Below, in pieces: positions 5,327-51,602 of a DNA stretch of 55,314 nt. The first letter of the stretch is position 1, and the number at the start of each line of letters is the position of its first letter. The notes under the pieces are model-generated. The model did not search any database and was not told where the DNA came from. It was given only the letters and a program-made list of their open reading frames with translations. Both the position numbers and the translations under genes were made by a program. Source of the stretch: a virus (taxonomy: Duplodnaviria; Caudoviricetes); the IMG/VR virus record IMGVR_UViG_3300034073_001667, positions 1 through 55,314 of that record. One strand, 5' to 3'.

Positions 5327-5361
5327 AATAAATTAAAATAAAAGTTGTAAGTCGGTTACAA

Positions 5362-5595
5362 CTAGAAGTTGCAGTCGTACTCTACGATGGTTGGCATACC
5401 TTCAATCGTCTTCCAAAGCATTATGCTGTTGTTCTTTATTAGGTATATCATATACCTGCGCTCTCCGTGACGTACAAGGTACTGCCCATCAAGCATAATG
5501 GCGTGTATTTCGCCATCTCCAGCCTTCTGACCCACATAGTAGGCCAAGGCTTTTAGCGGGTCATTGCCCGCAATAATTTTACGAATGAGTTCCAT
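5362..5595 (-). CDS. Conserved hypothetical phage protein
   Basis: 77 aa in operon context; IRKI..YVGQ..LWK..EYD. Confidence 0.7.
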   Translation of the reverse strand: MELIRKIIAGNDPLKALAYYVGQKAGDGEIHAIMLDGQYLVRHGERRYMIYLIKNNSIMLWKTIEGMPTIVEYDCNF

Positions 5596-5606
5596 TTCAT
5601 TTTAAT

Positions 5607-5909
5607 TTAGTTCAAATTTAGCCAATAATCGGGATCAGACGGATCGGAGTCGTCATCGTCTTCATCCATCTCGGCGTATGATGTTGCTAGGTGCATCAGC
5701 AGAGAGTTCATCTCCTCGGTGTTTTCTACATCAATTGTAGATATAGACTCCACCACATTCTTTCCGTCAATCTTTCCTGTGACGATTCCCATAGTGGCAA
5801 TCATCATAAAGTCGTCGTAGAGACCAAGCTCTTGGGCCTTCTCCATAATCTCCTCGAAGCTGTTTCGTGCGAAGATGAACAGCTCTACCCTAGACTCTGA
5901 CTTATCCAT
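5607..5909 (-). CDS. Hypothetical acidic protein
   Basis: 100 aa; TAATG-coupled to the upstream gene. Confidence 0.7.
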   Translation of the reverse strand: MDKSESRVELFIFARNSFEEIMEKAQELGLYDDFMMIATMGIVTGKIDGKNVVESISTIDVENTEEMNSLLMHLATSYAEMDEDDDDSDPSDPDYWLNLN

Positions 5910-6814
5910 TAGAGCTTACGGATGTGGAATACGCTAAACTCGTTGACATTTGCCGCAGCAGCAGAAGCCAACGCCCTTATGGAAACCACGTCACCAGAGG
6001 CTCCGTTGATGATTGTAGACTGGGTTAGGAAGTGGTCACTGATTGTGGCAAAGCGAGTTTGAGATGTGCCAACTGTTGTTCCATTAATTTCGAATAAAAA
6101 CGTAACATCTGTGTTGGTAGATGTAGTTGTAATGTCTGCAGAGAGTGTAATCTCATACACGCCATCCACATTAAATCGGAATGATGTTAGGTTTCCTCCG
6201 TATACGTTACCTAGTGTGTATACTGTTGATGCGTCTCCAATTAGCACAGTGTCTCCTCCTCCAGTACCAACGCTAGCAAAGTCAAGGTATACTGCTGAGG
6301 TGGTGAGGTTAATGGTTGGCTTTAGTCGTGCCACAACCTCTGGGGCAGACTGGTACTGGTTTGGGTTAATCAGTGCAGCAAGAGCAGAATAATCGATACG
6401 CTTCCACGTGGTAAGCGACGCATCATAGATAAGGAATCTGTCACCTGCGGCAGGAGTGCCAATGTCAGAGATGGCCGACGGGTTGGCTAGACGCACATCA
6501 GAGCCAGATACCCCAAGAGGGAGAGATGCTGTTGTTAGTGCGCCACCAGAGAAAGCTGCAGCATTGAGGGTGCGCTTAACAACTTGGTTCGAAGCATTAA
6601 GCAAAAGCGCATCAACCTCTGTTGAGCCAGTGGCTGGAACAGTTGGGAACTCAAGGGTTCCGTTGACGCCAACCTTACCTGTTGCAAGCTGAAGTGCTGT
6701 TGCCACTCCATCGCCAGACTCTACGTTCTTCAGTGAGGTCGTAGCGGTGTTTGTCGCCAGCTTCAGCAGCGAAGCAAACGCATTCTTAACCTTCTGTCCG
6801 CTAAGTGTTGCCAT
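5909..6814 (-). CDS. Virion fibre/spike-like protein with C1q/TNF-like C-terminal domain
   Basis: Ala/Thr/Gly-rich; C-terminus FRFNVDGVYEITLSA..INGASGDVVSIR..FHIRKL. Start ATG 6814, with TATCTTTG at 6832-6839 upstream. Confidence 0.6.
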   Translation of the reverse strand: MATLSGQKVKNAFASLLKLATNTATTSLKNVESGDGVATALQLATGKVGVNGTLEFPTVPATGSTEVDALLLNASNQVVKRTLNAAAFSGGALTTASLPLGVSGSDVRLANPSAISDIGTPAAGDRFLIYDASLTTWKRIDYSALAALINPNQYQSAPEVVARLKPTINLTTSAVYLDFASVGTGGGDTVLIGDASTVYTLGNVYGGNLTSFRFNVDGVYEITLSADITTTSTNTDVTFLFEINGTTVGTSQTRFATISDHFLTQSTIINGASGDVVSIRALASAAAANVNEFSVFHIRKL

Positions 6815-7957: not shown

Positions 7958-8136
7958 TAGTCCTCTTCCTCCTCGTAGAAGCAAGCCTTGAACTTGTAGC
8001 TCGTTGGAGTCTTGCCTGATGCTTTGACGGCAGCCTCTAGCTGTTTCATCCCAGAGGCCATATCCATAGACTTGATCTCGATTTCCTCACCGGACATCTC
8101 CATCTTGCCTCCTTCGTTGTACTTCTTGATCTTCAT
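7957..8136 (-). CDS. Small protein with N-terminal KYxxGG motif (59 aa)
   Basis: MKIKKYNEGGKMEMSGEE...FYEEEED; TAAATTTG at 8142-8149, 5 nt upstream of the ATG. Confidence 0.65.
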   Translation of the reverse strand: MKIKKYNEGGKMEMSGEEIEIKSMDMASGMKQLEAAVKASGKTPTSYKFKACFYEEEED

Positions 8137-9841: not shown

Positions 9842-9999
9842 ATGGCAAAGATAGTAACAGCAATAATAGCTGTATTTGATAGCTGTTTCACTTATTTATG
9901 GCTCCGTAAGTAGAAATCGCATTAAGTGTGTACTGTAACACTTATACATTATTGACTGCAACTGCTTGATAAACAATTATGAACAAACATACTCTTATA

Positions 10000-10031
10000 T
10001 TTGCTTATTAACTTTTTCATTTGTAACTTCG
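10000..10031 (+). promoter_or_regulatory. Promoter TTTG-N20-TAACTTCG
   Basis: Bacteroidota -33/-7 spacing; no credible ORF downstream. Confidence 0.55.
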
Positions 10032-10724
10032 CTAAGGCTAGAGCCGATAGACAGAACGCAGACTAACTAAGCTCTCTTATCATCGAGAGCCTACTTAGCC
10101 TACCAAACAAAGCAGGGGCGGCGCCTCAAGCAGAGCCCCCACCCCACCGCCGATAGCAAACAAAACTCAAGCTCCTAGGGTCCGCTCAGCTACCTAGAAT
10201 ACAGGCGCACTATACCCTAACCATAGCTGTTCAAATCATAACAGCAATCTAGTTGGCTCTAATAGTTTTTTCTTTTTTAGAATAGCCAACTTGTATCTGG
10301 TGGCTGCAAATAAGTATCTAGCGTTAGATATAAGTACCTAGGGGATTATATACATAATCGATCGTTCGCGCGCGCGTACGGAAACCGATCCCCAGACGTA
10401 TGGGGTTGCGTTTGACAGCATTTCGTTCGTAGGTTTCAGCGTTTTACCCACGTGACTCTCGTGATGAACTGACTGATTTTGCTGAGGGTTTTGAGTTGAG
10501 TTCCTAGAGAAAAGGAGGAACAATCCCCCCCCCACTTCACCCATTTCTCCCACTATCTCCCACCCTTGCCCACGTGCTATGCACACTTGCACACGTGCTC
10601 ACGTACGTGCGTGTGTGTGTACGTGCGCGCATTATGCGCGTGCGCGAGCCAAAGGAATTCGGTTAGCTTTATCCATCATTTTGAGCAATGGATATAAAGT
10701 TTCGTTCAATTTGCGGTTTGCCTA

Positions 10725-10754
10725 TTGTGGGTTCGTTTCGGCTAACTACATTCG
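10725..10754 (+). promoter_or_regulatory. Early promoter TTG-N19-TACATTCG
   Basis: Precedes the first early gene at 10782. Confidence 0.55.
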
Positions 10755-10781
10755 CAGTGTTAACCACTTAAAACAATTGCT

Positions 10782-11096: not shown

Positions 11097-11128
11097 AAAA
11101 ATTAATCAACCGAAAAAACTGTTCTGCT

Positions 11129-11308
11129 ATGAAAACTGAAAATATCTATGGAATCGTCGAGTCTCAGATTGAGTTGCTGTTTGACTCAGTGTGCGAAGAG
11201 TTCAACCTTGAGTCGGGCGATATTTCGCCTGAACTTCAGGTGAGGTTAGATAAGTGTGTTGAGGAACTTGAGGCCATCGTCGAGGGGTTCATCAACCTAA
11301 ACAAGTAG
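11129..11308 (+). CDS. Early acidic hypothetical protein (59 aa)
   Basis: MKTENIYGIVESQIELLFDSVCEEFNLESGDISPELQVRLDKCVEELEAIVEGFINLNK; below the ORF-track cutoff. Confidence 0.7.
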   Translation: MKTENIYGIVESQIELLFDSVCEEFNLESGDISPELQVRLDKCVEELEAIVEGFINLNK

Positions 11309-11313
11309 GTGCT

Positions 11314-11511
11314 ATGAAAGTGCATACGTATTCCTTTGGGGGTCTTGAAATCAGGGTTTGCTACCATCGTGATGCCGAAGGTGCGCTGAAGTGGGCTGTA
11401 AGTTCTCCTGAGTTCGATGTGTGTGAATATACTGACGAACTATGGGCAACGAAGGGTGAGGCGGTAGATGCGGGAATGTATGCCGCGAAGAGGTTAACTG
11501 ATGAGTCCTAG
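11314..11511 (+). CDS. Early hypothetical protein
   Basis: 65 aa; its stop codon lies in the hammerhead stem II loop. Confidence 0.7.
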   Translation: MKVHTYSFGGLEIRVCYHRDAEGALKWAVSSPEFDVCEYTDELWATKGEAVDAGMYAAKRLTDES

Positions 11512-11541
11512 GTGGACGAAACGTCGCGAGACGTCTTAACC
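11492..11541 (+). ncRNA. Hammerhead ribozyme, type I
   Basis: GGTTAA-CTGATGA-GTCC-taggt-GGAC-GAAA-CGTC-gcga-GACG-TC-TTAACC. Full catalytic core, three perfect stems, GUC cleavage triplet (cut after C11535). Confidence 0.93.
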
Positions 11542-11558
11542 ATAAAACAATCGAAACT

Positions 11559-11762
11559 ATGAACAATTCAATTGAAAGCATCATCGCATACGAGAACGGA
11601 GAGCTCACTGATCAGGAGGTAGTGTACTTCTTTGCCGAACTAGTTAAGAGTGGTCTGGCTTGGAATCTTCAGGGCCACTACGGACGGACTGCGAGTGCGC
11701 TGATTGACCACGGACTTATTGACGAGCAAGGAAACGTTTCTCTTGCTGTTCTAGAACTTTAA
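11559..11762 (+). CDS. Conserved early phage protein
   Basis: IIAYENGEL..LVKSGLAWNLQGHYGRTA..LI motif, recurrent in phage early regions. Confidence 0.75.
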   Translation: MNNSIESIIAYENGELTDQEVVYFFAELVKSGLAWNLQGHYGRTASALIDHGLIDEQGNVSLAVLEL

Positions 11763-11785
11763 TAAACGCCAACGAAATCTAACCT

Positions 11786-11995
11786 ATGAAAACTTATCAA
11801 TTCATCGTGACTGTGAGCAACAGCACCATCGTCGAAGTTCAATCTGAAAACTACGAGGAGGCCGTCGGACTTGCTCTGAAGGAGTTCCACGAGAGTGAGG
11901 TCATCCACGACCTATGCGACCCACGCTCTATGGGTGTGGACATTGAGCTCGAAGAGGAGTTTGATGGTGAGGTACCAGAAATGTATCCACTTTGA
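11786..11995 (+). CDS. Early acidic hypothetical protein
   Basis: MKTYQFIVTV..VEVQSENYEEAV. Confidence 0.7.
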   Translation: MKTYQFIVTVSNSTIVEVQSENYEEAVGLALKEFHESEVIHDLCDPRSMGVDIELEEEFDGEVPEMYPL

Positions 11996-12069
11996 CCGAA
12001 AATGTGTTTTGCCGAACAAACAATTCTTTTAACCTTTGACTAACCAACGAAATAATTAAAACTATGAAA
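11993..12069 (+). repeat. Promoter/leader repeat, copy 1
   Basis: TGACCGAAAATGTGTTTTGCC..AATTCTTTTAACCTTTGA..AACCAAC..AATTAAA..ATGAAA; near-duplicate at 12534. Confidence 0.75.
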
Positions 12070-12219
12070 CAATTAGAATCAGGAGCGGCATCGCTCAAGG
12101 TGGAGCTAACCCACGGAGAAATCGTGGTATACCACGGAACGGACGGTACTTTGCTGTTTACCCGCCCTGCCTTCGAGGGAGATTGGAGCAAACTTTTTAA
12201 TCAACTTAAAAACAACTAA
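12064..12219 (+). CDS. Early hypothetical protein (51 aa)
   Basis: MKQLESGAASLKVELTHGEIVVYHGTDGTLLFTRPAFEGDWSKLFNQLKNN. Confidence 0.65.
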   Translation: MKQLESGAASLKVELTHGEIVVYHGTDGTLLFTRPAFEGDWSKLFNQLKNN

Positions 12220-12540: not shown

Positions 12541-12611
12541 AAATGGGTTTGCCTATCTAAGTAATTCTTTTAACCTTTGAAAAACCAACAAAACAATTAA
12601 ACACAATGAAA
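12534..12611 (+). repeat. Promoter/leader repeat, copy 2
   Basis: TGACTGAAAATGGGTTTGCC..AATTCTTTTAACCTTTGA..AACCAAC..AATTAAA..ATGAAA. Confidence 0.75.
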
Positions 12612-12986
12612 AACACAATGAGCCTTTTAGAAGCCGTAGAATTCCTAGTAGGACTTCAGGACGGTGAGAACGACCAACTTGCTCAGGCAATAGATGTAGT
12701 CGTTGGCGGACTTAAGTTTGGCCACGAGGAATTCAATCAGGTGGAACTACCTTCCTTAGCCTGGACTGCGGAAGACTTTGATAACCACGTTGAGGGACTA
12801 TACGACCTAGGAAAGATTGACGAGTCAACAGCAAAGAAACTTATGGCCTATCGTGAGTCTGAAAAGCTAGGTATTGTCTCGAACGCAATCGAAGATATCG
12901 AGGACTCAATTATGGAGAAAATAAATGATAGCATTTTCTATCGTGTTCGTCTAGAAGCTAACCAAGTAAAAAATCAAAACCAATGA
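12606..12986 (+). CDS. Early acidic hypothetical protein
   Basis: 126 aa, follows the repeated promoter. Confidence 0.75.
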   Translation: MKNTMSLLEAVEFLVGLQDGENDQLAQAIDVVVGGLKFGHEEFNQVELPSLAWTAEDFDNHVEGLYDLGKIDESTAKKLMAYRESEKLGIVSNAIEDIEDSIMEKINDSIFYRVRLEANQVKNQNQ

Positions 12987-15767: not shown

Positions 15768-15824
15768 TAAACACTTGCATATCAGAAAGATTGCTCGTAC
15801 TTTTACTAAACAATTCAATTCACT

Positions 15825-16427
15825 ATGAAAGAACTAACGTTCCAACAGCGACTGATTAACGTCCAGTCGCGACTGAAGGCTCCCAAGTCTCAGTACAATT
15901 CGTTTGGTAAGTATTCTTACCGCAACCAAGAGGATATCCTCGAAGCAGTCAAGCCTCTGCTCGCAGAGAACGGACTGATTATGACTATCTCTGACGAGAT
16001 TGTTGACTCTGGATTTGATACCGCTATGCTGGTTGTCAAGTCAACTGTTACAATCACTGATGGGGAACACAGCGTCTCATCAACAGCTTGTGCAGGCATT
16101 GATCCGAACCGCAAGGGTATGGACATCGCACAATCATTCGGAGCTTCATCTTCGTATGCCCGTAAGTACAGCTTAAATGGCCTGCTATTGATTGACGATA
16201 CCAAAGATGCTGATGCTACAAATACTCACGGCAAGGACGCTCCGGCTTCGATGCCTACGGCGAAGCCAGCGTCCGTTGCCCCACCGAAGGACGATATGTT
16301 TCAGAAGGCTGTTGACCGAATGAAAGAGGTCGGAACGAAAGCCAAGTATGATGAGATTATCGCGGCTATCGGTACCCAGTTGTCTGAGGCACAGCGTAAC
16401 GCGCTGAGCAAATTCATCAAGAAGTAA
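15825..16427 (+). CDS. erf: ERF-family ssDNA annealing protein
   Basis: LKAPKSQYNSFGKYSYR..EDILEAVKP; GASSSYARKYSLNGLLLIDD..DAD. Confidence 0.9.
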   Translation: MKELTFQQRLINVQSRLKAPKSQYNSFGKYSYRNQEDILEAVKPLLAENGLIMTISDEIVDSGFDTAMLVVKSTVTITDGEHSVSSTACAGIDPNRKGMDIAQSFGASSSYARKYSLNGLLLIDDTKDADATNTHGKDAPASMPTAKPASVAPPKDDMFQKAVDRMKEVGTKAKYDEIIAAIGTQLSEAQRNALSKFIKK

Positions 16428-20748: not shown

Positions 20749-20806
20749 CGCTACAACTCCTTCTATTTCATATCTAATAAATCAGTTACAACCTTACAAT
20801 AACCCT

Positions 20807-22698: not shown

Positions 22699-22952
22699 AG
22701 ACTTGGAAGCAGTATGGTGTTAACCACACCGAGTACGACCGCGTTGGTTCGTACGCCATCGTAACGATGAGCTTTGACCAACCCAATTGTCCTTTCTATC
22801 TAGGGCTTTTCGGGGTCGCAAAGTCAGGTAGATATAATTTCATTTGCAACTTGCGTATCTCGGAGGGTTGGAATACTTTTGATGAGGCGAAAGCCCAACT
22901 TTGCAACAAAGCAATTAAACTCAATGAAAATAAACCAACTAGACCTGTTTAG
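22695..22952 (+). CDS. Hypothetical protein
   Basis: ATGA-coupled. Confidence 0.55.
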   Translation: MKTWKQYGVNHTEYDRVGSYAIVTMSFDQPNCPFYLGLFGVAKSGRYNFICNLRISEGWNTFDEAKAQLCNKAIKLNENKPTRPV

Positions 22953-29945: not shown

Positions 29946-29969
29946 GTCTCTAACTTAAAACCAATCAAT

Positions 29970-30965
29970 ATGGGACTGTTCGATGAACGTACCGCATATA
30001 AGCCATTCGAGTACCCAGTGTACTTTACAGAGGGATGGCTACCTCAGGCTCAAGCCTTCTGGCTTCACACAGAAATTCCAATGATGGGAGACGTTAAGGA
30101 CTTCCGTGAGAACCTAACAGATTCAGAGCGCAATCTAGTTGGCAACATCCTGATTGGCTTTGCCCAGACAGAGACTGCTGTTGGCGACTACTGGACCAGT
30201 ATGGTAACCAAGTGGTTCCCCAAGCACGAAATCAAGCAGATGGCTATGATGTTCGGATCTCAGGAGACTATCCACGCTGCAGCCTACAGCTACCTCAACG
30301 AAACGCTTGGCCTTGAGAACTTCGAGGCATTCCTTCACGAGCCATCAACAGCTGCACGCTTTGAGAACCTCGTCAACACGAAGGCAGGATACGACCATAA
30401 CATCCTTAAGATTAGCCCGAAAGCGCGTCAAGATGTTGCTCGTTCTATCGCTGTGTTCTCTGCGTTTGCAGAGGGAGTAGCGCTGTACTCATCATTTGCT
30501 GTTCTCTACTCGTTCCAGATGCGTAACCTACTGAAAGGTATTGGACAGCAGATGAAGTGGAGCGTACGTGACGAGAGCCTCCACAGCAAAATGGGTTGCG
30601 TCCTGTTCAATCATTTGTGCCAAGAGCATCCAGAGATTCGTGTTGCCGTACGTGCACAGATTGAGGAAGCCGCACGTATTGCTGTTGAGCTAGAGGTTAA
30701 CTTCATAGACAAGATGTTTGAGATGGGAGACCTTGAGAACCTAAAGGCAGACGACCTCAAGGAGTTCATCAAGATGCGTGCAAACGAGAAGCTTGTTGAG
30801 CTTGGCTACGAGGCCATCATTTCATACGATGCTGATAAAGCTGCTGAACTTGAGTGGTTCAACCACCTGTCTGGAGGCGTAACACACACCGACTTCTTTG
30901 CTGTCCGCCCTACGGACTACAGCAAGGCAGGAGAAGGAGAAGACTTTGAGGACATATGGACGTAA
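29970..30965 (+). CDS. nrdB: Ribonucleotide reductase class I beta subunit
   Basis: ETIHAAAYS, EGVALYSSF, RDESLH, HTDFF. Confidence 0.95.
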   Translation: MGLFDERTAYKPFEYPVYFTEGWLPQAQAFWLHTEIPMMGDVKDFRENLTDSERNLVGNILIGFAQTETAVGDYWTSMVTKWFPKHEIKQMAMMFGSQETIHAAAYSYLNETLGLENFEAFLHEPSTAARFENLVNTKAGYDHNILKISPKARQDVARSIAVFSAFAEGVALYSSFAVLYSFQMRNLLKGIGQQMKWSVRDESLHSKMGCVLFNHLCQEHPEIRVAVRAQIEEAARIAVELEVNFIDKMFEMGDLENLKADDLKEFIKMRANEKLVELGYEAIISYDADKAAELEWFNHLSGGVTHTDFFAVRPTDYSKAGEGEDFEDIWT

Positions 30966-50182: not shown

Positions 50183-50725
50183 TTAAAGCACGCGATTCCC
50201 CTTAGACATATTGTCAAACGCCCATAGTGGCTGAAGATTAGAGTAGTGATTTAACGACTTTATGTCTTCCTCGCTTAATGCTGATGAAATTGGAATTATA
50301 TGATCGATATGCCACTCCCCATAATTATCCCAAGACATACCAACCATAAACTTAGATTCAATATACACTTTAAAATCATCAACAGAACAGCCAATAAAAG
50401 ATAGACTACTTTGTTTTTTATTCATTTTTACTTTTCTGCAAAATATGGTAACCCTGCTCCTGAAGTTGTCTATCATTCTAAATGTTGGATCTAATTCACG
50501 TCTTCTTTTTTTATACTGAACCGCTGACTTTATTACCTTATCTCTATTTTCGGCCCGGTATTTTCTTTGATAATCTATATACCACTGTTTGTTAGCATCC
50601 CTGTAAGCTTTCCTACAAGACTTGCATTGGCTAAACAATCCGTCTTTTGAATTTTTATTTTTAGAAAAGTCGTCAGCTGACTTTAATGATTTACACTTAC
50701 TGCAAGATTTCTTGTGCTCTTTCAT
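50183..50725 (-). CDS. HNH (homing-type) endonuclease
   Basis: CSKC..CKSC; MSWDNYGEWHIDHIIP..HYSNLQPLWAFDNMSKGN; AT-rich; start ATG 50725. Confidence 0.85.
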   Translation of the reverse strand: MKEHKKSCSKCKSLKSADDFSKNKNSKDGLFSQCKSCRKAYRDANKQWYIDYQRKYRAENRDKVIKSAVQYKKRRRELDPTFRMIDNFRSRVTIFCRKVKMNKKQSSLSFIGCSVDDFKVYIESKFMVGMSWDNYGEWHIDHIIPISSALSEEDIKSLNHYSNLQPLWAFDNMSKGNRVL

Positions 50726-50741
50726 ATTCTTTAAGAAACAG

Positions 50742-50765
50742 AAAAGGGCCTCATTGCTGAGGCCC
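50742..50765 (-). terminator. Intrinsic terminator
   Basis: GGGCCTCA-gcaa-TGAGGCCC-TTTT. Confidence 0.75.
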
Positions 50766-50820
50766 AATTCAGAACCAATCAAAACAATCCACCTATGAAA
50801 ACGTAGGCGCAACTATTATG
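50742..50820 (-). ncRNA. Candidate ~80-nt small RNA antisense to early start regions
   Basis: -7 box TATATTTG at 50825-50832; U/G-rich body containing GUUUUCAUAGGU; ends in a terminator. Confidence 0.55.
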
Positions 50821-50834
50821 ACTGCAAATATATG

Positions 50835-51602
50835 TTACAATTCTAGTTTATGCAACTCTTCCTTCAAGGTTTCGTAAACCGTTCCTCCCTTTTCTGTCAA
50901 ACAGAACTGAGTCATAACACTCACGGTGTCCTGACCCACTGGCGTAGCTACGATAAGTCGGTTGCTGTCGAACCAATACATACCGTCCTCACGAGCATTC
51001 AGTAGTTGGAAGTCAACAGCTTTCTTAACTGTTGCTCGGGTTGCAACTGTTGGATTGTCGAACAACTCAATGAAACGCTTTGGGCGAGCCTTAGCCTCAA
51101 GCAACAGCTCACGCTTGAGTTCTGCATTCTTCTGGTTGGTGTCAATACCCAAGTAGATTGCAATTGGCATCAACTCGTCAATAGACTTGTTGCGGACCAA
51201 GCCAATAGCGTCGTGAAGGACAAACTCCTCGTTGATGTCTACCTCTGCCTTAAACTCAGTGTTCACCTCCTCAAACAATCCACCACCATTGGCTCGGTTG
51301 CTGGGATGGAGGTCAAGAAAGCGCTGAAGTGTAGGCTGCTCTGCTGGTACATAGATTGAACCATTCTCAAAGACAATGTGCTTGCGAACAGCAAATGAAG
51401 ACTGCTCGTCAGAGAACACAGAGGCTTCGTTTGGGCAGTAACGAATCTGTCGGTTTGTGTTGGTCTCAGGGTCGTAGATGATAGCCTCAGACTTTACGGT
51501 TGCAATGATACCACCGCCCTTTGGCATATGGTAAATCTTTGCCTTGCGCTCTGATACGCTTTCCACTTTAGGAGCTGTGGTTGCTCGTGCTGGACGTGCC
51601 AT
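50835..51602 (-). CDS. Conserved protein downstream of the capsid gene
   Basis: RQIRYCPNE.S.F.DEQ..IVFENG..LQRFLDLHP; TAATTTTG at 51632-51639. Confidence 0.7.
   Translation of the reverse strand: MARPARATTAPKVESVSERKAKIYHMPKGGGIIATVKSEAIIYDPETNTNRQIRYCPNEASVFSDEQSSFAVRKHIVFENGSIYVPAEQPTLQRFLDLHPSNRANGGGLFEEVNTEFKAEVDINEEFVLHDAIGLVRNKSIDELMPIAIYLGIDTNQKNAELKRELLLEAKARPKRFIELFDNPTVATRATVKKAVDFQLLNAREDGMYWFDSNRLIVATPVGQDTVSVMTQFCLTEKGGTVYETLKEELHKLEL

Follow-up and report, generated by a model that had tools for sequence, protein, structure and literature searches.

Small RNAs (sRNAs) that control translation in Bacteroidota have come to light only recently (GibS in 2020, FopS in 2025), and the phages of this phylum are essentially unstudied in this regard. 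FopS is described as a set of fourteen sRNAs of ~65-70 nt in B. thetaiotaomicron, made from canonical sigma-ABfr promoters, whose seed pairs next to the start codons of SusC mRNAs so that translation is blocked; the RRM protein RbpB binds and antagonises them (PMC11697453). Their R1' seed, given there as a 35-nt consensus at the 70% level, holds UUUUUCAUAG, followed by ..GAUUU..GGUUA... GibS acts in trans, has a conserved R1 seed in common with FopS and pairs across the start codons of its targets (PMC7366714; PMC13750123). On sRNAs of Bacteroidota phages we found no literature beyond one sentence of the FopS paper, which mentions a FopS sequence in one Caudovirales phage (PMC11697453); in a 2025 review of phage-derived sRNAs, the string 'Bacteroid' does not occur. 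Here, we describe a short unit in the IMG/VR virus record IMGVR_UViG_3300034073_001667 (55,314 bp, analysed over its whole length and referred to as the window) that is probably a phage-encoded, divergent FopS/GibS-like sRNA gene, with the early mRNAs of the phage itself as its best-supported in-silico targets.

The window has an estimated completeness of 91%, and its promoters are of the Bacteroidota type, TAnnTTTG. Plus-strand genes at ~10.7-33.1 kb comprise small early genes, Erf and ribonucleotide reductase; terminase, capsid, adaptor and giant virion proteins are encoded on the minus strand elsewhere. DNA runs labelled freshwater, lake, river, subsurface or sludge contained 68-89% of the words sampled from 49.4-53.2 kb. 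The unit lies on the minus strand, in the order TAA stop of a 255-aa gene, 2 bases, TATATTTG, ~55 nt, terminator hairpin and U-run. Its features and the gene before it are:

50835-51602, minus strand: 255-aa late gene (phrog_34748), just downstream of the major capsid gene; TAA stop at 50835-50837
50853..50855, minus strand: TTG, candidate -33 element by its position ~20 nt upstream of the -7 box, within the last codons of the 255-aa gene
50825..50832, minus strand: -7 box TATATTTG, by its sequence a sigma-ABfr type promoter element of Bacteroidota, beginning 2 bases past the stop
50738..50819, minus strand: predicted small RNA of ~75-82 nt; putative 5' end a few bases past the box, 3' end in the U-run
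50779..50821, minus strand: predicted 5' hairpin, its apical loop holding the UUUUCA of the anti-start motif
50793..50797, minus strand: CAUAG, of which CAU (50795-50797) is complementary to an AUG start in CUAUG context (CTATG on the plus strand at 50793)
50766..50792, minus strand: G/U-rich seed candidate GUGGAUUGUUUUGAUUGGUUCUGAAUU, of which 50771-50778 is predicted to be single-stranded
50738..50765, minus strand: intrinsic terminator with GCAA loop and U-run; stem-loop 50746-50765, GGGCCTCA-GCAA-TGAGGCCC, then TTTTCTGTTT

An earlier reading of the letters (hereafter the sequence-only reading) had placed a -7 box and a GCAA-loop terminator here, and both stand where it put them, the box TATATTTG at 50832..50825 and the stem-loop, also written GGGCCUCA-GCAA-UGAGGCCC and followed by the U-run, at 50765..50746 (minus strand). 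TAnnTTTG occurs 46 times in the window against ~36 expected, so one box alone is little proof of a promoter. In the window, 10 late genes have such a box before them, against only 3 early genes, which assigns the unit's promoter to the structural-module class. The context of the TTG, GAGTTGCA, recurs in the relatives L002-L010 and L018 (minus-strand sequences compared by eye). The same reading held the unit to be free of open reading frames (ORFs); this is right in that no conserved frame crosses it, but two TTG-start frames do overlap it. One (50183..50812, minus strand) is an upstream extension of an HNH endonuclease gene whose PHROG matches begin at residues 1-5 of the form starting at ATG-50725, the other is a 58-aa frame on the plus strand (50622..50798), and neither is kept in the relatives, which are without the HNH gene altogether. 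The ATG on the opposite strand opens 3-12 codons across the family (3 in the window); a plus-strand gene or promoter at the site was rejected, these codons being non-conserved and no box lying upstream.

The unit has several traits in common with FopS: both are ~65-80 nt long, lack an ORF, carry a canonical TAnnTTTG promoter and end in an intrinsic terminator, and both have a core UUUUCAUAG followed by GAUU..GGUU elements. Common to the two is also the proposed action, in which pairing round the start codon of Shine-Dalgarno-less mRNAs blocks initiation; one FopS member is, moreover, derived from a 3' untranslated region (3' UTR) (PMC11697453). The phage unit has a canonical sigma-ABfr box of its own, whose use as a promoter is read from the sequence, and its predicted transcript (~75-82 nt) is short, non-coding and ends in a Rho-independent terminator. 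The 9-nt core UUUUCAUAG is identical to that of the R1/R1' seed, and the remainder aligns only as GAUU...GGUU. Differences are equally plain. In FopS the seed takes up positions 1-21 or 1-35, at the very 5' end of the RNA, and is single-stranded, whereas the phage CAU lies ~22-25 nt in (~20-25 nt from the putative start across types A, B and C), in a predicted hairpin loop, and none of the type A, B and C variants folds, in prediction, with its seed in a single-stranded 5' end. FopS has 12-15 paralogs per Bacteroidaceae genome, whereas the phage unit is single copy (one pattern match in each of six genomes). FopS belongs to Bacteroidaceae and the phage to environmental, freshwater-type settings; FopS targets SusC mRNAs, and the best in-silico targets of the phage RNA are phage early genes. 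GibS stands further off, with 145 nt, a second seed (R2), a non-canonical promoter motif, a chromosomal location and a response to the carbon source (PMC7366714; PMC13750123). To judge by seed core and architecture, which match those published for Bacteroides FopS and GibS, the system is of a kind already known, and the sequence-only reading overstated its case in calling it undescribed (PMC11697453; PMC7366714).

Outside Bacteroidota the comparison is of another sort. No plus-strand gene lies over the unit, as the overlap of a cis-antisense RNA with an opposite target gene would have it, and the candidate targets are found at 11-30 kb. Small phage RNAs that pair with phage ribosome-binding regions and time expression are known in sar of P22, c4 of P1 and P7, and OOP of lambda. 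These belong to enterobacterial phages, act on Shine-Dalgarno sites and work mostly on cis or neighbouring transcripts, whereas the candidate targets of the present unit are many, 20-40 kb away and without Shine-Dalgarno sequences.

A search with the 255-aa protein found relatives at 43 loci, and 18 of these are close (65-86% identity). The full unit, consisting of stop, -7 box, 40-60 nt, terminator, second promoter and adaptor gene, is present in 12 of the 18 close loci, which bears out the claim of a discrete promoter-to-terminator unit. The -7 box is identical in 10 of the 12 aligned relatives (TATATTTA in L013, TATCTTTA in L017), while the 20-30 nt next to it cannot be aligned. After this variable 5' stretch the units read (U)UUCAUAG (GUCAUAG in L013, AAUAG in L017), and then a G/U-rich stretch that ends (GA)UUGGUU(GG) (UGUGUUGUU in L013 and L017). 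The second promoter past the terminator is TACTTTTG or GTACTTTTGTA in relatives and TATCTTTG in the window, L013 and L017. Another five close loci (L011, L012 and L014-L016) have a short spacer, a terminator and a promoter, with no box between stop and terminator; L019 was uninformative. In 20 distant, AT-rich relatives the order is stop, CAAGTGATTAT..., terminator and adaptor gene, again with no box. As a separate observation, CAAGTGATTATAA is conserved in the first 15-20 nt past the stop, before the terminator, in the distant AT-rich (marine-type) loci L020-L043, where it is a possible 3'-UTR element.

The predicted RNA folds at -31.3 kcal/mol (z -4.27; 0/200 shuffles as stable). All 11 folded variants, three of them taken from a metagenome scan, show a 5' hairpin, an unpaired 8-13-nt G/U linker and the terminator (z -3.2 to -6.3), and in types A, B and C the CAU lies in or beside the apical loop of the predicted hairpin. 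By inspection, stem changes among the window, L018 and L254 (C-G to U-G, G-U to A-U) keep the pairing, and types B and C have different stems with the helix retained. RNAalifold on a MAFFT alignment recovered the terminator helix, with compensatory changes in 3 pairs, and failed to recover the 5' hairpin, the 5' arms of which are unalignable by sequence; the case for a conserved hairpin is thus made by single-sequence folds and inspection. Mimicry of a tRNA anticodon by the UUCAUAG loop, first suggested by a 7-nt loop read by eye in type C, was rejected: in RNAfold the loop of that type has 3 nt (CAU), and those of types A and B have 8 nt. No Rfam family reached its gathering score in the window or 12 other loci; MicA, the best sub-threshold match of the unit (E 0.43), was taken as chance.

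According to the sequence-only reading, the complement of the RNA resembles early start regions, and the matches it quoted are present: ACCTATGAAAAC at 11782, CTATGAAAAC at 11127, AAAACAATC at 11544 with CTATGAA at 11557, AACCAA at 12583 with CAAAACAAT at 12589, CCTATGAAA at 20804 and AACCAATCAA at 29959. It had cautioned that A-rich matches are of low complexity. For single words this caution is just, since ~5 ten-mer matches are expected genome-wide by chance and single 10-12-mers are therefore weak evidence; taken as a whole, the complementarity is above that of shuffled controls. The complement of the RNA is made of the commonest 5-mers of early starts (CUAUG, AACAA, AAAAC, AUCAA, AACCA and ACAAU). 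Duplex energies given here are hybridisation only (duplexfold), compared with dinucleotide shuffles. The 3' half of the RNA, scored against 39 early start regions, beat 150 of 150 shuffles in both the top-10 mean and the overall mean; on 25 late start regions it did not beat all shuffles, and neither did the 5' half. The own seed of each genome, running from CAUAG to the terminator, gave top-10 z values of -3.0, -5.7, -4.3 and -2.5 against the early starts of G000, G001, G003 and G004, respectively (100 shuffles), and z values of -0.2 to -1.9 against late start regions (100 shuffles). Internal coding windows of early genes gave z -1.9 to +1.4, with top-10 z -0.9 to -1.9 in three genomes. The four genomes represent three sequence types, G001 being 95% identical to G000.

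The signal persists when CAUAG is taken from the seed and the start codon from the target. Against early leaders (-32..-3), top-5 z values were then -2.2, -3.4, -2.9 and -3.4 in the same four genomes, with 4, 0, 2 and 0 of 200 shuffles reaching the observed value; the seed of the window gave a top-10 z of -2.77 (2/200 shuffles as good), and late leaders gave z -0.6 to +0.7. A fifth, divergent type (G211) was weaker, with a top-10 z of -2.3 (0/200 shuffles) and a mean z of -0.7, and in the promoter-less relatives G212 and G213 early-leader pairing stood at z near 0 and -1. Early-leader enrichment is thus found in five genomes that have the box and in neither of two that lack it. When seeds were swapped among genomes, each of the four early sets had its best top-5 mean with the own seed type (for G000 this was the same-type G001 seed, at -21.9 against -19.8 for G000's own), a result that is only weakly significant with three independent types. 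Two further approaches told little: a whole-window duplexfold scan with a 54-nt RNA was dominated by long gapped duplexes and uninformative, and in accessibility-corrected scoring most targets went unscored because sub-optimal duplexes exceeded the length filter.

Early leaders are short, of the form UAACCAA ... AAAACAAU ... CUAUGAAA, and colinearly complementary to the RNA. The predicted duplexes form ~25 colinear pairs that reach from an AACCAA-like element to a point shortly after the AUG, with energies of -23 to -26 kcal/mol. The leader generated by a hammerhead, which the sequence-only reading had named as a site, ranks first of 45 among early start regions in the window. The candidates, and the hammerhead itself, are:

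11537..11575, plus strand: predicted target, start of a 67-aa gene (phrog_3908) with the leader from the hammerhead cleavage site; rank 1/45, -22.9 kcal/mol, 31 pairs, hybridisation only
11767..11794, plus strand: predicted target, start of a 69-aa early gene; 12/12 match, -26.2 kcal/mol, 25 pairs, colinear from AACG... past the AUG
11107..11137, plus strand: predicted target, start of a 59-aa early gene; -25.1 kcal/mol, 25 pairs
12041..12076, plus strand: predicted target, start of a 51-aa early gene; -24.4 kcal/mol, ortholog ranked 1/28 in G001
12582..12613, plus strand: predicted target, start of a 126-aa early gene; -23.6 kcal/mol, 26 pairs, ranks 6/45 and 3/28
15804..15840, plus strand: predicted target, start of an ssDNA-annealing gene, Erf-like by PHROGs; -24.7 kcal/mol, ranks 9/45, 7/28, 4/37 and 6/31
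29954..29981, plus strand: weaker prediction, start of the ribonucleotide reductase small subunit gene (nrdB); AACCAAUCAA directly before the AUG, -17.0 kcal/mol, ranks 19/45, 12/28, 1/37 and 5/31
11492-11541, plus strand: type I hammerhead; full-length Rfam Hammerhead_1 match, 28.4 bits (gathering score 34), E 3e-05 in a 241-nt search

Of the ortholog groups, only that of the Erf-like gene ranks in the upper quarter in each of the four genomes. Regarding the leaders themselves, if the hammerhead cleaves after GUC, the 67-aa gene would keep UUAACCAUAAAACAAUC... as its 5' leader; this leader also stands before a different gene in the relative G001. TAnnTTTG boxes are mostly missing from early genes. 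A repeated motif, TTCTTTTAACCTTTGA, lies upstream of early genes (12020-12045 and 12561-12586, plus strand), followed by AACCAAC...AAUUAAA leaders, and may be a non-canonical early promoter.

Look-alike units occur well beyond these relatives. Viral contigs were scanned with the pattern box-N-TTTCATAG-N-GGG, and metagenome and GTDB contigs with the stricter box-N-TTTCATAG-N-TTGGTT. The viral contigs yielded at least 115 stretches in at least 53 clusters; among the matches listed, a strict terminator is present in 21 of 53 clusters, 18 of which show only a 3-28-codon frame on the opposite strand. With a permuted motif (TTTACTAG) as control, the scan found 35 stretches in 21 clusters, of which 3 clusters have a terminator. 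The stricter pattern matched 118 times in metagenome contigs (82 with terminator) and 121 times in GTDB genome contigs (72 with terminator). Terminator-bearing clusters belong to Parabacteroides, Tannerellaceae, Porphyromonas, Proteiniphilum, Chitinophagaceae, Prolixibacteraceae, Moheibacter and Vaginella, and stray matches in other phyla have no terminators. The Chitinophagaceae form, with one or two units per genome, is the closest to the phage type B seed (UUUCAUAGGUU.AUU..GUU; local alignment z 4.5-5.3), and the bacterial units together with the viral clusters L068 and L097 align with the FopS consensus at z 3.0-5.2. Literature searches found no paper that names chromosomal CAUAG-GGUU units of other Bacteroidota. 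The scans suggest that sRNAs of the UUUCAUAG-GGUU type reach well past Bacteroidaceae, into Chitinophagaceae, Prolixibacteraceae, Weeksellaceae and many phage contigs; such reach would broaden a family that has until now been described from gut Bacteroides.

Individual units of this kind deserve mention in their own right. Two large clusters of unrelated viral contigs (L068 and L081 with 22 others; L097 with ~12 others) have the layout promoter-UUUUCAUAG-U/G-rich-terminator, at z 4.1 and 5.2 against the FopS consensus, and in L081 the box begins right past the stop of the preceding gene (5352..6128, minus strand). FopS-like units outside Bacteroidaceae are widespread (L337-L455, e.g. L338, L348, L340, L350/L359 and L358): one cluster of ~60-67 species-level genomes covers Parabacteroides, Tannerellaceae, Porphyromonas and Proteiniphilum, ~8 genomes are of Chitinophagaceae or other freshwater Bacteroidota, and 4 are of Prolixibacteraceae. 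Moheibacter sediminis has three copies within a few kb, and some units stand directly past a tRNA gene (L222 and L223).

The sequence pattern of the unit is real and beyond chance, and a discrete sRNA is likely to exist. Whether such an sRNA acts by pairing at start regions is, in our judgement, evenly poised, and that phage early genes are among its real targets is a tentative proposition, somewhat more doubtful than that. Taken whole, an autonomously transcribed gene of the FopS/GibS type with phage early mRNAs as its best-supported in-silico targets is the explanation we favour, at about even chances. We infer that the unit is transcribed, that this happens late and that pairing of the RNA represses translation. 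The host-type sigma-ABfr promoter right past the stop of the 255-aa gene would drive an RNA of 75-82 nt, and, being of the late-gene class, would fire on the structural module so that the small RNA is made. The 5' hairpin would present UUUUCAU, with the G/U-rich part partly single-stranded and the intrinsic terminator behind it; the CAU of the loop and the G/U linker could then nucleate pairing with the short early leaders, and the extended duplex would cover start codon and A-rich enhancer zone and block initiation, as FopS does. Host mRNAs with the same leader type may also be hit.

We hypothesise an early-to-late switch on this basis. Its fullest form, in which an environmental lineage of Bacteroidota podophages captured a host-type FopS-like riboregulator and retuned the seed to its own early leaders, so that, with the firing of the host-polymerase promoters of the structural module, one RNA-based switch acts on early mRNAs including the hammerhead-processed one, strikes us as rather unlikely. 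If true, it would mean that a set of early mRNAs is shut off by one RNA in a phylum without Shine-Dalgarno sites, and, given look-alike units in at least 15 unrelated viral clusters, anti-start sRNAs carried by phages would be a widespread device. In either case, the conserved phage copy offers a testable case of a phage that uses the start-codon-targeting RNA logic of its host on itself or on the host.

A number of points weigh against phage early mRNAs as targets of a FopS-like RNA. Gene sets and start codons came from crude ORF calls, with strand blocks set by hand. No orthologous target is consistently top-ranked, the 67-aa gene standing at 1/45 and 3/37 but at 21/28, and nrdB varying as listed above. 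The early leaders, similar and A/C-rich, form a family, so that targets are not independent and the signal could be that of one leader motif. The duplex energies ignore the RNA's 5' hairpin, within which a large part of the seed, with CAUAG, is predicted to be paired. Outside the 9-nt core, the unit of the window is weakly alike to the FopS consensus (local alignment z 2.1, 21/500 shuffles as good), and the comparison units were preselected by patterns requiring TATATTTGC, TTTCATAG, TTGGTT or GGG, which makes the likeness partly one of construction. At 16 loci of other viral clusters, among them partial loci and short seeds, pairing with local leaders was not enriched (top-3 z -1.66 to +1.57; 2 further loci had no unit found). 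Seeds of Moheibacter and Vaginella pair with phage leaders too (z -1.6 to -3.2, compared with -3.3 and -4.0 for the own seed, 0/100 shuffles), and the phage RNA is thus not alone in fitting them. The terminator would in any case be needed for the upstream gene. Finally, contigs from four RNA runs are 88-95%-identical relatives that lie mostly over the capsid gene and are uninformative on the small RNA; six RNA runs contained 6-9% of the words.

The pairing of bacterial seeds above shuffles also fits the alternative that survives best, namely that the FopS-like phage sRNA is real, that its true targets are host mRNAs (e.g. those of outer-membrane or SusC-like transporters) and that the phage leaders copy the host's efficient leader type. 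FopS represses SusC-type transporter mRNAs at their start regions (PMC11697453). Near-identical chromosomal seeds (UUUUUCAUAGGUUGAUUUGGUUAGGG) occur once or twice per genome in assemblies of Chitinophagaceae and other freshwater Bacteroidota, and in one genome of the Chitinophagaceae family (L500, G065:C288) a leader of CCAATCAA-like repeats stands directly before CCTATGAA, a near-perfect complement of the phage seed. However, the complement of the Chitinophagaceae seed has ~20 sites with 2-3 mismatches in five genomes, compared with 12 for a reversed control, and these sites form no coherent gene class; a BLAST search of the type B unit against 201 Chitinophagaceae genomes gave weak, mostly coding-region matches; and the best fit of the own seed type to the own early leaders in all four sets would not be expected if the targets were in the host alone. 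The start regions scored against the seeds were those of the phage genomes. We regard host-only targets as rather unlikely.

Conservation of the locus bears on a further alternative, which does without a separate RNA: the hairpin would be the terminator and 3' UTR of a highly expressed capsid-region operon, TATATTTG would be a weak read-through promoter to the adaptor gene (a leader or attenuator) or be conserved for another cause, and the complementarity would be functionless. A terminator indeed follows the 255-aa gene in all relatives, including the box-less L011, L012 and L014-L016 and the 20 distant ones. The five box-less close loci look as a plain 3' UTR should, with no promoter and a spacer free to vary, but the window does not, its box, hairpin architecture, UUUCAUAG and GAUUGGUU being conserved. 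The second conserved promoter past the terminator (TACTTTTG; TATCTTTG in the window) serves the adaptor gene, so a read-through promoter would be redundant. The box is invariant amid diverging surroundings, and the 5' hairpin is kept through sequence change. Against a mere 3' UTR also speak the same layout standing free in bacterial genomes, where in Bacteroides it is that of a characterised sRNA (PMC11697453), and the restriction of early-leader enrichment to genomes with the box. We think this account unlikely. A low-complexity coincidence between a G/U spacer and A/C leaders, or a relic in the form of a decaying inverted early-leader copy, is very unlikely: the early leaders are indeed repetitive and rich in A and C, single 10-12-mers match about as often as chance would have it and internal coding windows of early genes are mildly negative, but composition-keeping shuffles pair worse in five genomes, late leaders stand at chance, as do the two relatives without the promoter, each of the three diverged seed types is the best fit for its own genome, and the seed has the same core as a functional sRNA family (PMC11697453).

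Three further observations concern the window beyond the unit. The HNH/endonuclease VII-like gene (50183-50725, minus strand; phrog_1035, E 9e-27) lies between the sRNA terminator and the adaptor-gene promoter; it is peculiar to the window, absent from every close relative compared, and looks like a free-standing homing endonuclease, and in a low-depth RNA run (X15) one contig joins 50138 to 50773, corresponding to a form without it. At 8136, 9356, 9841 and 43808 (minus strand) and at 22882 and 26299 (plus strand), -7 boxes end 0-5 nt before an ATG, so the mRNAs of those genes should have little or no leader. Nearly 1 kb of noncoding DNA (9850-10780) separates the divergent late and early blocks; it contains C-rich stretches, GT/GC repeats and, at 9996 on the plus strand, TATATTTG, and is probably the early control or origin region.

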